From positions 1-20,988 of the IMG/VR virus record IMGVR_UViG_2778261588_000006: a stretch of 20,988 nucleotides of DNA; one strand, given 5' to 3'. A program made the position numbers and the translations under genes. The notes under the pieces are model-generated. The model was given only the letters and a program-made list of their open reading frames with translations. It ran no database searches and was not told where the DNA came from. The DNA is from a virus. Its lineage: Duplodnaviria > Heunggongvirae > Uroviricota > Caudoviricetes. Shown piece by piece: positions 4,941 to 20,461 of the stretch; within the stretch, counting starts at the first letter, position 1; each line of letters begins with the position of its first letter.

Positions 4941-5226
4941 TACTGATAGCGCCATAGCGTGAGCGGTAATTACGCAGGCGCGGGTCAATTTCAGGGAAGT
5001 GGGTATATGTGGCTTTGCGGAATGGTCGGATTGATGTCTGGTAAATCCGCTCTCGTTCTTCTTTCTCTGCAAGCCATATACAGTGGCGAAATTCCTTTTC
5101 CTCTTGCGTTTCCTGCGGTAGCGACATTATCAGGTCGTAGTTTTTTCTGAATTTATCCAGCACCTCCGATACGGAATTGCCGGAACAGCGGCGCGCGTCG
5201 TCCGCACCATACAGAGGCGCTGGCAT
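4933..5226 (-). CDS. Hypothetical phage protein (97 aa)
   Basis: ATG with AGGAG SD 6 nt upstream, directly downstream of ssb. Confidence 0.5.
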
Positions 5227-17257: not shown

Positions 17258-17442
17258 ACGCCACAATTCAAACGATACCAGAGCTTCTTATCCAGACACG
17301 AGGCAATCAGACCGAAGTGGCGAGGATGCTTTCCTGCGCAAGAGGAACAGTGCTCAAGTACAACCGAGACAGCAAAGGCGAGCGTCATGTAATAGTTAAC
17401 GGCGTCCTGATGGTCAAACAAGGAAAGAGGGGAAGACGATGA
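17254..17442 (+). CDS. ninH: NinH-like protein
   Basis: IPELLIQTRGNQTEVARMLSCARGTVLKY...VNGVLMV parallels lambda NinH. Confidence 0.7.
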   Translation: MNATIQTIPELLIQTRGNQTEVARMLSCARGTVLKYNRDSKGERHVIVNGVLMVKQGKRGRR

Positions 17443-17957
17443 GCATAAGAGAACTAAACCTCACCAAAGAGCAGCACGAGTGGCTGAATGGCTGGCTTGA
17501 ACTGTGGGGCGCATGGGTTTATTCAGGTCGACTGGAAAAGCGCATGAGCAGCGTAATAGCGAAGTTCATGGAGAGCGTAGAGCCGGGAAGAGTTATGACA
17601 AGGCCAATGTGTAATGATGATGATGGAATGTTGATTTCTCAGGTCGTCGATTCCGTCATGTGCATTGACAAGAAAGCCTTTGGCATCCTCCTCAGCTACT
17701 ACGCTCATGGTTCATCTAAGCGAGCAATTGCATCCTACTATCACGCGACTGCAAAGCCACGCAAGATGTGTGGACGTGGTGGCGAGGGATGGAGAAAACC
17801 TTCACTGGCAACCTGTAGAAACGAAATTGACGACATCCTGAAAGCGTCATTATTTGTTTTATACCAGCCAATGCAAAATGCTTTCAAAATGCGTAAACGT
17901 GTTGAGAAAGTTAAGCATGTTGCTGTTAAAAGCCTTGACATGCAATTAGCCATTTAG
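17439..17957 (+). CDS. Q: Late-gene antiterminator Q (QuuD / non-lambda Q family)
   Basis: Positioned between ninH and the lysis cassette; WGAW and RPMCNDDD motifs resemble QuuD-type Q as recalled; unlike lambda Q. Confidence 0.6.
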   Translation: MSIRELNLTKEQHEWLNGWLELWGAWVYSGRLEKRMSSVIAKFMESVEPGRVMTRPMCNDDDGMLISQVVDSVMCIDKKAFGILLSYYAHGSSKRAIASYYHATAKPRKMCGRGGEGWRKPSLATCRNEIDDILKASLFVLYQPMQNAFKMRKRVEKVKHVAVKSLDMQLAI

Positions 17958-17964
17958 CCATAAT
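17935..17964 (+). promoter_or_regulatory. Candidate late promoter PR' (-35 TTGACA 17935-17940; -10 CATAAT 17959-17964, 18-bp spacer)
   Basis: Consensus -35 and near-consensus -10 straddling the Q stop codon, where lambdoid late promoters lie. Confidence 0.35.
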
Positions 17965-17973
17965 TAGAAGGTA

Positions 17974-18017
17974 AGCTGCCGTTAGTGACTCTTAAGTTGC
18001 AACGGTGGCTTTTTTTG
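17974..18017 (+). terminator. Candidate tR'-like intrinsic terminator (stem 17974-17983 / 18001-18010, then T7 run)
   Basis: About 10-bp stem (two G-U pairs) with large loop followed by TTTTTTTGTTTG; about 35 nt downstream of the candidate PR' start. Confidence 0.35.
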
Positions 18018-18040
18018 TTTGCACAACAGGTAAGAGCATT

Positions 18041-18090
18041 GCGCGCCTGACGAGTCCATGAGGGACGAAACGCATTAGCGTCGCGCGGAG
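18041..18090 (+). ncRNA. Hammerhead self-cleaving ribozyme motif (type I topology)
   Basis: Core CUGACGA 18047-18053; stem II GUCC 18054-57 / GGAC 18063-66 (loop AUGAG, G10.1-C11.1 pair); GAA 18067-69; stem III ACGC 18070-73 / GCGU 18078-81 (loop AUUA, A15.1-U16.1 pair); cleavage triplet GUC ending at C 18082; stem I CGCGC 18042-46 / GCGCG 18083-87. Every invariant core position is satisfied. Confidence 0.6.
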
Positions 18091-18532
18091 TATCCCCAGC
18101 CGGGGAATAACTGGATACCAGGGGAGACAACCCTAAGCGCATTTACGAGTGTGTTTAGGGCGTGGGTCGGCAATGACTCCCTGTGCAGCCGACATCTGGC
18201 CCGGCAACATACAGTGCTCTTTCCGTTGTGCTGAATTAAGCGAATACCGGAAGCAGAACCGGATCACCAAATGCGTACAGGCGTCATCGCCGCCCAGCAA
18301 CAGCACAACCCAAACTGAGCCGTAGCCACTGGCTATCCTGAATTCATCAGTGATAGTTATGCTGCGGCCTTCTACACATGACCTTCGTGAAAGCGGGTGG
18401 CAAGAAGTTGCGCTAACAACCTCCTGCCGTTTTGCCCGTGCATATCGGTCACGAACAAATCTGATTACTAAACACAGTAGCCTGGATTTGTTCTATCAGT
18501 AATCGACCTTATTCCTAATTAAATAGAGCAAA

Positions 18533-18548
18533 TCCCCTTATTGGGGGT
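18533..18548 (+). promoter_or_regulatory. sdi-like stem-loop (CCCC-TTATT-GGGGG) upstream of the S dual start
   Basis: Hairpin immediately 5' of ATG-AAG-ATG, as in lambda where it sets the S107/S105 ratio. Confidence 0.55.
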
Positions 18549-18553
18549 AAGAC

Positions 18554-18877
18554 ATGAAGATGCCAGAAAAACATGACCTGTTGGCCGCCATTCTCGCGGC
18601 AAAGGAACAAGGCATCGGGGCAATCCTTGCGTTTGCAATGGCGTACCTTCGCGGCAGATATAATGGCGGTGCGTTTACAAAAACAGTAATCGACGCAACG
18701 ATGTGCGCCATTATCGCCTGGTTCATTCGTGACCTTCTCGACTTCGCCGGACTAAGTAGCAATCTCGCTTATATAACGAGCGTGTTCATCGGCTACATCG
18801 GCACTGACTCGATTGGTTCGCTTATCAAACGCTTCGCTGCTAAAAAAGCCGGAGTAGAAGATGGTGGAAATCAATAA
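18554..18877 (+). CDS. S: Holin S (class I, dual-start S107/S105)
   Basis: [39 protein letters not shown]... is essentially lambda S as recalled; Met1-Lys2-Met3 dual start. Confidence 0.95.
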
Positions 18878-19855: not shown

Positions 19856-20080
19856 CCATTACAAAGCTCATCTGCGGGTGGGCTTGATAATGAAACCGGA
19901 ATTTATTCTGGGCAACCAGTTACGGCAGTACCACGAAACAACCCAAGCCAGTAAGTGGGGAAATAACACTGGCAGCCACTGAAAGATGAACCTCCTGCCT
20001 TATGGCAAAAAAGATTCTTTGTGGTGGCGGACTGATGGAAAGACATCCTAATCAAGCAACCACTCTACAGGGTCATAATT

Positions 20081-20461
20081 ATGAACGACCAGCAAATCGA
20101 AAAAGAAATCGTTGAGAAAGGCAAAACTGCACCGCGAATCACCCCGCAGCACATCGAAGACGTGATTAAAAGCGAGCATTACTTTACTGCTTATGATGGA
20201 CGAAATGGTGCCATTTCCAGCAACGAATATTGTGGCAGGGAAAAACCAGAAGAAGGCGATCGTGATTTATCACCATTGAAGTTGCTCACTTTCTGCGTAC
20301 TGGTGCTGAAGAATGGCTTCACCGTCACCGGAGAGAGTGCCTGTGCAAGCCCGGAAAACTTTGATGTAGAAATTGGTCGGAAGATTGCCCGGCAGAATGC
20401 TGTAAACAAAATCTGGATGCTCGAAGGTTACTTGCTGAAGCAGAAGCTAAGCGAACAGTAG
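20081..20461 (+). CDS. Hypothetical phage protein (126 aa), possibly Gp49-like
   Basis: Isolated ORF after the lysis cassette, flanked on both sides by a repeated linker motif; family guess weak. Confidence 0.5.
   Translation: MNDQQIEKEIVEKGKTAPRITPQHIEDVIKSEHYFTAYDGRNGAISSNEYCGREKPEEGDRDLSPLKLLTFCVLVLKNGFTVTGESACASPENFDVEIGRKIARQNAVNKIWMLEGYLLKQKLSEQ

Follow-up and report, generated by a model that had tools for sequence, protein, structure and literature searches.

Between genes Q and S of an Escherichia coli lambdoid prophage, represented by a stretch of viral DNA of 20,988 nucleotides (nt) (IMG/VR record IMGVR_UViG_2778261588_000006, hereafter the window), lies a 170-nt cassette in which a type I hammerhead ribozyme runs directly into a second conserved RNA domain, here called the body (18083-18206). 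The body belongs to a family, in most cases joined to a hammerhead, with 128 copies, 99 of them distinct, in phages, prophages and metagenomes; the body folds around two pseudoknots, occurs in two permuted orders and appears to be a previously uncatalogued class of phage non-coding RNA. As to its role, we lean, with confidence slightly above even, towards a discrete, compact and stable phage RNA that acts in trans after being cut free by the hammerhead and host RNases.

The limits of the cassette follow from comparison with phage lambda. The lambda match of 17958-18553 is confined to 18212 onward (lambda 44844-45185, 97.4% identity, megablast) and a further 21 nt (18021-18041) are identical to lambda 44786-44806; between these anchors the window has 170 nt (18042-18211), as against 37 nt in lambda (44807-44843) that form the loop of a hairpin. 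An earlier note on this DNA had seen lambda-like sequence past tR' at 18021-18040 and a lambda-like S leader from about 18216, with some 175 base pairs (bp) lacking a lambda counterpart in between, all of which proves right to within a few bases. The segment it singled out (18091-18215) overlaps the insertion, in which the conserved body covers 18083-18206. The anchors form the two arms of a hairpin around the element:

18021-18041, plus strand: 5' arm of a ~19-bp hairpin, paired with 18212-18231 in the minimum-free-energy (MFE) fold
18212-18231, plus strand: 3' arm of the enclosing hairpin, identical to lambda 44844-44863

The 170-nt cassette occupies the loop of this ~19-bp hairpin, which lambda also has just 3' of tR'. 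Lambda-like arms also flank the element in the T7-like phage EhYP and at loci L008 and L046, and the arm hairpin looks like an RNase III-type processing stem that serves at the same time as a landing pad for inserts. The loop of this late-leader hairpin varies among relatives (37 nt in lambda, a different 38 nt in CUS-3 and HK75, 170 nt in the window). Further variable inserts lie 3' of the hairpin between Q and S (~150 nt in CUS-3, ~60 nt in HK75, tRNA-Asn plus tRNA-Thr in Sf6), as seen when 18232-18553 of the window is compared with L004, L005 and L006 (alignment A1, columns ~300-520); the CUS-3 annotation labels the conserved flanks 'boundary sequences'.

Conserved blocks supplied the anchors for the exact-pattern scans by which copies were found in viral, genome and metagenome collections. 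Both halves of the body were required, which removed chance matches (among them many metagenome loci, L009-L017 and L051-L053). Ribozyme and segment travel together between unrelated phages: at 95% identity, 18030-18225 is found again, arms included, between the capsid and tail-tube genes of the T7-like Enterobacter phage SDFMU_EhYP, and the core (18042-18209) recurs at 80% identity directly 5' of tRNA-Met in Pectobacterium/Dickeya phages. Carriers include Enterobacteria, a Bordetella genome, Betaproteobacteria-type contigs, gut Bacillota metagenome-assembled genomes and Arthrobacter phages; among 5,426 complete E. coli genomes, 15 have the element, one copy each. A covariance model (R1) built from 11 standard-order copies, none of them enterobacterial (alignment A5), matches 18042-18206 of the window end to end, over all 169 model positions (164.6 bits, E ~3e-44), and has zero matches in lambda, CUS-3, HK75, Sf6 and the T4 tRNA region; the outcome that would have spoken against the idea of the earlier note, a segment unchanged in lambda, was thus not observed. 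The window carries the family blocks GCGCGGA, GGAAUAAC, GCGUGGG, UGCAG and CAUCU in register, together with the helices Pa, PK1, Pb and Pd that are described below.

That the ribozyme and the body belong together is indicated by the order of their parts. The window order, hammerhead first, is found in 27 of the 99 distinct copies. The other 72 are circularly permuted, that is, they read GCGUGGG...CCCGGCA, a linker, and then GCGCGGAG..., such that the 3' half of the segment lies upstream and its 5' half downstream; the linker holds the hammerhead in 49 of these copies and a small hairpin instead in 23. Because the permuted halves lie on either side of the hammerhead, we regard hammerhead and segment as a single architecture, which bears out the proposal in the earlier note that the segment could be the rest of a larger ribozyme-containing RNA. 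Among standard-order copies, L158 (minus strand) alone lacks a hammerhead; in front of it stands a fragment, …UAUCUUGCCCUCAC, that resembles the 3' tail of a second copy and may be the remnant of a tandem duplication, a possible route to permutation.

The fold of the body was derived from an alignment of 86 distinct cores with both halves concatenated (A3, the window being row 1). An unbiased mutual-information scan returned as its top column pairs exactly four helices, with 93-100% Watson-Crick or wobble pairing and 4-6 pair types each. In the explicit structure, 96.6% of cells are paired (68.9% after shuffling and at most 41% with slid partners), compensatory change is present at 25 of the 29 modelled pairs, and the covariation score is 0.685 (0.144 when shuffled, at most 0.094 with slid partners). 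RNAalifold, run on 15 standard-order copies, independently gives hammerhead stems I-III, PK1, Pb and Pc, and the MFE structure of 18021-18231 of the window (-90.2 kcal/mol, z=-4.5) contains both the arm helix and hammerhead stems I, II and III. The plus strand was assigned because of G-U pairs. The body consists of the following parts, in 5' to 3' order:

18083-18089, plus strand: head A, GCGCGGA, the 3' strand of hammerhead stem I (helix P0); invariant columns G1 and G3-A7
18090-18095 with 18113-18118, plus strand: hairpin Pa; 5/6 pairs compensatory, 97.7% of cells paired
18096-18097 with GG at 18198-18199, plus strand: CC contact beside PK1, supported by covariation
18099-18104 (GCCGGG) with 18200-18205 (CCCGGC), plus strand: pseudoknot PK1; 5/6 pairs compensatory, 99.6% paired
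18120 and 18122-18128 with 18175-18182, plus strand: pseudoknot Pb; 8/9 modelled pairs compensatory, 4-6 pair types
18131-18140 with 18151-18160, plus strand: hairpin Pc, an optional closing hairpin; compensatory pairs in standard-order copies
18160-18166, plus strand: head B, GCGUGGG; invariant columns
18166-18171 with 18188-18193, plus strand: hairpin Pd; 5/6 pairs compensatory, 99.6% paired
18194-18206, plus strand: linker AUCU(GG), the PK1 3' strand CCCGGC (18200-18205) and A18206, the 3' end of the body, where the R1 match also ends

The body (~115-120 nt) is thus built of two hairpins, Pa and Pd, each of whose loops pairs with the distal tail of the other half: the loop of Pa holds the 5' strand of PK1 and the invariant GGAAUAAC (18104-18111), and the 16-nt loop of Pd holds the 3' strand of Pb and a conserved UGCA. 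The resulting pseudoknots, PK1 and Pb, surround ~25 nearly invariant unpaired bases, in blocks that include GCGCGGA, GGAAUAAC, CAG, GCGUGGG, UGCAG and CAUCU. The window forms all modelled pairs save for one A-A mismatch in Pb. Beside PK1, 74 copies have C-G and 12 have A-U at the pair 18096/18199 (columns 14-98), with zero exceptions, and the second contact pair (columns 15-97) is Watson-Crick in 76%; the contact is probably of a junction or triplex type, and the first pair probably stacks at the Pa/PK1 junction. The long-range pseudoknots displace some of the local hairpins read by the earlier note. Its GTCGGC/GCCGAC hairpin is Pd (18166-18171/18188-18193) and is upheld by covariation. Its AGGG...CCCT pairing survives only when read as GGGAG (18122-18126) with CUCCC (18177-18181), that is, within Pb, and its CCCC-AGCC-GGGG hairpin is not supported, as these bases pair elsewhere (GCCGGG 18099-18104 with CCCGGC 18200-18205, and CC 18094-18095 within Pa).

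The two halves are arranged in a pseudo-two-fold manner, each with its own head (GCGYGG), hairpin and tail, and the RNA has two natural opening points, P0 and Pc, which are equivalent helix ends. In permuted copies the Pc site holds the ends of the RNA, where the flanks or GUG/CAC pair (at least 3 bp in 63 of 72), and in hammerhead-less copies head A folds into a small hairpin, UCCGC-AGGC-GCGGA. Internal duplication was considered as the source of the pseudo-symmetry and set aside, the halves not being significantly alike (346 of 2,000 shuffles score as well).

The ribozyme in the window has the following parts:

18041-18082, plus strand: type I hammerhead, predicted cut C18082/G18083
18042-18046: 5' strand of stem I
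18047-18053: core CUGACGA
18054-18057 with 18063-18066: stem II
18067-18070: GAAA
18070-18073 with 18078-18081: stem III
18082: C17

Its catalytic core is complete (CUGACGA, GAAA, the A18070-U18081 pair, and C rather than G at 18082), and the MFE fold contains all three helices, with stem I open and stems II and III closed. The Rfam model Hammerhead_1 (RF00163) scores 24.7 bits (E=0.0014), under the gathering score of 34; this shortfall concerns the model score and not the core, the flanks of stem I being short and GC-only. Across the family, stems II and III show compensatory pairs (RNAalifold alignment), 72 of 74 hammerheads have canonical cores, H17 is C in 47, A in 22, U in 5 and never G, and pairing is retained among 49 different sequences of stem II and 56 of stem III. 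Given these canonical cores, an H17 that is never G and stems that vary yet pair, the hammerhead is predicted to be active and is probably under purifying selection. In most permuted copies loop II is AGUAACGC irrespective of stem II (for example, L057, L060, L083, L105, L120, L143, L204 and L205), which suggests a conserved tertiary contact; the window hammerhead lacks AGUAACGC and has AUGAG as its own loop II. Core variants (CCGAUGA or CCGAGGA replacing CUGAUGA) or degenerate hammerhead remnants are present in L115, L122, L125 and L244, as well as in L055 and L104, and may represent stages of ribozyme loss.

The genomic contexts of the 99 distinct copies fall into four classes: 26 lie beside a tRNA gene, 17 have a terminator and 15 an open reading frame (ORF) downstream, and the remaining 41 are of other kinds. 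A tRNA gene lies within 1.5 kb on the same strand in 32 copies and on the opposite strand in none, and within 30 nt in 23. In permuted copies a layout recurs in which the element abuts the upstream tRNA gene (0 nt) and is followed by the next after 2-7 nt, in arrays of up to 27 tRNA genes. Hammerhead-less copies are enriched beside tRNA genes (11/23 versus 10/49; a test on 11/24 gave p ~0.03). An intrinsic terminator follows within 100 nt 3' of ~17 copies, and a Bacillota copy (L083) also has its own consensus promoter. That many copies are wedged between tRNA genes or have their own terminator would fit a small RNA, the second possibility raised in the earlier note. All-against-all BLAST of the ORFs within 3 kb of the 99 copies revealed no recurrent neighbouring protein family besides the lysis genes of the close lambdoid relatives. 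On one contig (L059), the Rfam small RNA 'Betaproteobacteria-1' (102.7 bits; 5089-5209, minus strand) lies ~2 kb from the element. In two phages 'hypothetical protein' calls overlie the element itself (L001 3035-3151, CDS0014 of Pectobacterium phage Pappous; L250 830-940, gp68 of Arthrobacter phage Constance), and these calls are probably spurious.

We compared the body with what is already known. At gathering thresholds none of the 4,227 models of Rfam 15 (which include twister, twister-sister, pistol, hatchet, HDV-like, all riboswitch classes, drum, ROOL, transfer-messenger RNA (tmRNA) and Y-RNA-like) matches the body in standard or permuted copies, and at E up to 10 both orders gave only noise (at most 15 bits); the empty scans of permuted copies likewise dispose of a known RNA family in another permutation. 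A tRNA, which usually occupies this slot, or a degenerate tRNA was rejected (ARAGORN detects no tRNA gene in the window, and the Rfam tRNA model has no match on the element). So was a protein-coding origin: as the earlier note had judged, there is no plausible ORF, the segment being overlapped only by unconserved ORFs of 32-62 amino acids, substitutions follow the paired RNA columns, and the opposite-strand 'protein' clusters shared between loci are artefacts of the conserved RNA. A riboswitch or cis-acting leader does not suit the mixed contexts and the absence of a recurrent gene family. In the full-text literature searched, with subscription-only papers outside its scope, there was no earlier description of this hammerhead-linked RNA.

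Known systems resemble it in part. The type I hammerheads of prophages (RF00163; Perreault et al. 2011, PMC3088659) share the core CUGANGA...GAAA, GUC at the cut, three stems, the open stem I and the intergenic prophage position with 18041-18082; however, stem I is here the entry helix of a second conserved domain of ~120 nt that exists in two permutations, whereas described prophage hammerheads flank genes and, in the full-text literature searched and as far as we know, none has been reported within a larger conserved RNA. Theta ribozymes (Kienbeck et al. 2024, PMC10879173) are similar in their tRNA-cluster setting, exact abutment on tRNA 3' ends and pseudoknots, but the present element lacks the HDV-like P1/P2/P3 nesting, has no covariance-model match, is about twice the size and also occurs outside tRNA clusters (for example, in the lambda-type late leader), and the only ribozyme recognized in it is the hammerhead, which would cut 45-100 nt from the tRNA end. 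Permuted RNAs such as two-piece tmRNA, hammerhead types I/II/III and twister P1/P3/P5 (PMC10085705) likewise keep one fold with ends at different helix termini. As in two-piece tmRNA, permuted hammerhead copies would mature into a base-paired two-piece RNA; unlike it, they have no tRNA-like domain or tag reading frame, and the break would be made by an embedded ribozyme and not by host processing. The orphan RNAs drum, DUF3800-I, skipping-rope, ROOL and GOLLD (Weinberg et al. 2017, PMC5737381) are comparable in conservation, pseudoknots or multistem junctions, frequent 3' terminators and a phage or prophage setting. They show no covariance-model similarity to the body, drum and DUF3800 differ in having an associated protein family, and none of these orphan RNAs shares the fused hammerhead or the permutation. 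Drum in particular was rejected, as it is tied to a protein family and terminators, not to hammerheads (PMC5737381), and its model has no match here.

The nearest functional analogue is offered by the species 1 and 2 RNAs of phage T4 (rnaC and rnaD), small stable non-tRNA RNAs that are co-transcribed with the tRNA genes beside them and whose function, to our knowledge, is still not established. Unlike the element, they have no ribozyme and no known permutation, and homology was rejected (the conserved blocks are absent from their sequence and R1 finds nothing in the region).

Assuming that the body is indeed a trans-acting RNA, its production can be envisioned as follows. Q-antiterminated late transcription from pR' would traverse the cassette; the hammerhead would cleave C18082/G18083 in vivo and thereby leave an exact 5'-OH end on the body, the start of head A being the predicted end; and host nucleases would release the 3' side, most likely either by an RNase III-type cut in the arm helix or by 3' trimming back to PK1. 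The product would then behave like the tRNAs in the same slot of phage 21/Sf6-type phages and like the copies in tRNA arrays, and would not be a regulator of S. Within tRNA arrays, neighbouring tRNA-processing cuts could take over the job of the hammerhead, and we propose that the hammerhead is more often dispensable there because these cuts do the same work. In permuted copies, hammerhead cleavage would yield an RNA in two pieces that PK1, Pb and the closing helix keep together. The many invariant bases at the junctions, like the triplex-like pseudoknot, suggest a dedicated pocket for binding or an active site, and conservation across bacterial phyla, combined with the lack of a partner gene, points to a target that is itself conserved across phyla; our best guess, made with low confidence, is a nucleotide-type ligand or some part of the machinery of translation or tRNA metabolism.

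Several observations weigh against this interpretation. The invariance of GCGCGGA, GGAAUAAC and GCGUGGG is partly a matter of ascertainment, these blocks having served as search anchors, and it is not strict, given that an Arthrobacter copy has CCGCGGA for head A (with a compensatory stem I, GCGG/CCGC). The 23 hammerhead-less copies among the 99 imply that the ribozyme is not essential to the role of the body. In permuted copies the hammerhead nicks the RNA internally and trims no end, and because of this the idea that the ribozyme makes the 5' end covers only the standard order, as in the window. Some 15 copies lie 20-100 nt 5' of an ORF, a position that would also suit a role in cis. Lastly, the cut in the arm helix rests on RNase III sites that Daniels et al. 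are said to have described in the lambda late leader in 1988.

A broader possibility, to which we give a tentative minority weight, is that the body is a new functional RNA machine and no passive structure, namely a ligand- or tRNA-gated hammerhead (which would be the first in nature), a new class of ribozyme that works on phage tRNA-array transcripts, or a mimic of tRNA damage. For the last of these, a nicked helix with 2',3'-cyclic-phosphate and 5'-OH ends, made by the built-in ribozyme, might resemble a nuclease-damaged tRNA, and could act as a decoy for tRNA-targeting defence nucleases or trigger host RtcR/RtcB repair, nicked tRNAs being a proposed signal for RtcR (PMC7790460, PMC10159003).

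That the body is itself catalytic, that is, a new class of self-cleaver that cuts at G1 of GCGUGGG and trims the 3' trailer of the upstream tRNA, or some other tRNA-array ribozyme, we consider unlikely. The idea draws on the position of head B, the first base of which lies at 0 nt from the upstream tRNA in 10 of 16 permuted copies, compared with 8 of 57 tRNA-tRNA gaps (p=0.0003), in parallel with theta ribozymes, which are no more than 1 nt away from a tRNA end in 77% of cases and for which trimming of tRNA trailers has been proposed (PMC10879173); bacterial self-cleaving ribozymes, moreover, cluster together and in phages (PMC10085705), and pseudoknots with many invariant bases fit the heuristics for ribozymes. 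However, an RNase Z-type cut could account for the 0-nt spacing just as well, and in the standard order the base of Pc buries G1 of head B, where a cut would split the RNA. The size of the body (~115-120 nt) exceeds that of typical small self-cleavers, and cmscan at E up to 10 gave no HDV-like, twister, twister-sister, pistol or hatchet match. A hand comparison of topologies led to the same result: HDV-like, twister and group I-like assignments were rejected as partial echoes only. The helices of the element follow the order Pd(5')-Pb(3')-Pd(3')-PK1(3')-P0-Pa(5')-PK1(5')-Pa(3')-Pb(5'), which does not provide the HDV-like or theta nesting P1(5')-P2(5')-P3 hairpin-P1(3')-P4-P2(3'); P3/L3 has no equivalent, no P1 begins at the cut site, and no crossing helix has head B as its first strand, unlike in HDV-like ribozymes, which cut 5' of G1 of P1.

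Less probable still, in our estimation, is a ligand- or partner-gated hammerhead, a riboswitch-like cis element in which the body would be an aptamer controlling cleavage through P0/stem I and which would here tune the integrity, stability or translation of the downstream S-R-Rz late mRNA. The geometry is inviting, with a stem I of only 4-5 bp that runs straight into the body, the many invariant unpaired bases and triplex-like H-type pseudoknot typical of aptamers, a loop II (AGUAACGC) kept across stem II variants in permuted copies as would suit tertiary docking, and a pseudo-two-fold architecture that might be likened to that of some aptamers for symmetric ligands; the copies closely 5' of an ORF would fit as well. 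These ORFs, however, form no consistent gene family, a third of copies are near tRNAs and ~17 stand directly before terminators, unlike riboswitches, 23 copies have no hammerhead to be gated, and no expression platform is evident. We also know of no natural allosteric hammerhead.

An improbable reading is that the element merely punctuates transcripts: the hammerhead would sever the late or tRNA transcript and the body would shield the new ends (the downstream 5'-OH end and, where the copy is permuted, the 3' end of the RNA upstream as well) without any role in trans. Structured 5'-OH ends are poor substrates for the 5'-end-dependent decay of E. coli, and the elements of the window, EhYP and Pappous head or divide highly expressed late blocks right after read-through terminators. 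Prophage hammerheads have in fact been proposed to cut long transcripts into shorter mRNAs (Perreault et al., PMC3088659). Yet a simple hairpin would suffice for this purpose, and it leaves unexplained the ~25 invariant bases and two covarying pseudoknots maintained across phyla as well as the hammerhead-less, between-tRNA and terminator-followed copies. Finally, a selfish, RNA-mobile or viroid-like element, in which a circular hammerhead RNA (retrozymes and viroid-like RNAs carry hammerheads; PMC4918200, PMC7761336) is copied into DNA at arbitrary openings without benefit to the phage, would account for the circular permutation and for the up to 95% identity between unrelated phages, but is highly improbable considering that there are only two opening points, both helix ends as structural constraint predicts, one copy per locus and per E. 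coli genome, one hammerhead per copy (such that ribozyme cuts alone cannot excise a unit-length RNA), no reverse transcriptase or recurrent neighbour gene, and purifying selection on ~30 bases across phyla that argues for function.

The window covers a late-control and lysis region, the tested stretch of which is 100% identical to E. coli strain CFSAN061763, where RefSeq annotates no feature in the interval from the Q antiterminator to the holin. The surrounding features are as follows:

17439-17957, plus strand: Q gene, its end overlapped by pR'
17935-17964, plus strand: late promoter pR', TTGACA-18-CATAAT, 11/12 consensus bases
17974-18016, plus strand: tR'-type leader terminator, a hairpin with a U-run, aligned with the annotated Tr' of HK75 (L005 317-358) and of Sf6
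18554-18877: S gene, the lambda-like S leader running up to its start at 18554

The promoter can be aligned base by base to pR' as annotated in HK75 and Sf6. The terminator (17974-18016) was not picked up by a simple terminator scan; Q must antiterminate through it. The Q gene is not lambda Q but belongs to the phage 21 type, given the annotation of the near-identical region in Sf6 (phage-21-like), and next to the lambda-like S leader it marks a mosaic junction. A gene of the GIY-YIG nuclease family (~19970-20461, RefSeq annotation of the identical prophage) lies 3' of the lysis cassette.

In summary, if the family is new, as the searches suggest, it adds a class of RNA with a complex fold to phage biology, one that is present in phages of at least three bacterial phyla (Proteobacteria, Bacillota and Actinobacteria among the hosts), both temperate and lytic, and that includes genetically tractable lambdoid prophages of E. 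coli. We know of no precedent for a pseudo-two-fold, permuted architecture with a ribozyme in one of two equivalent helix ends. Should the proposed role hold true, the hammerheads of prophages, whose role has been in question since 2011, would gain a concrete job, namely the shaping of the ends of a partner RNA. The family would also be, after theta ribozymes, the second natural small RNA embedded in phage tRNA arrays, which suggests that these arrays carry more than tRNAs, and several 'hypothetical protein' annotations of phages are probably wrong.

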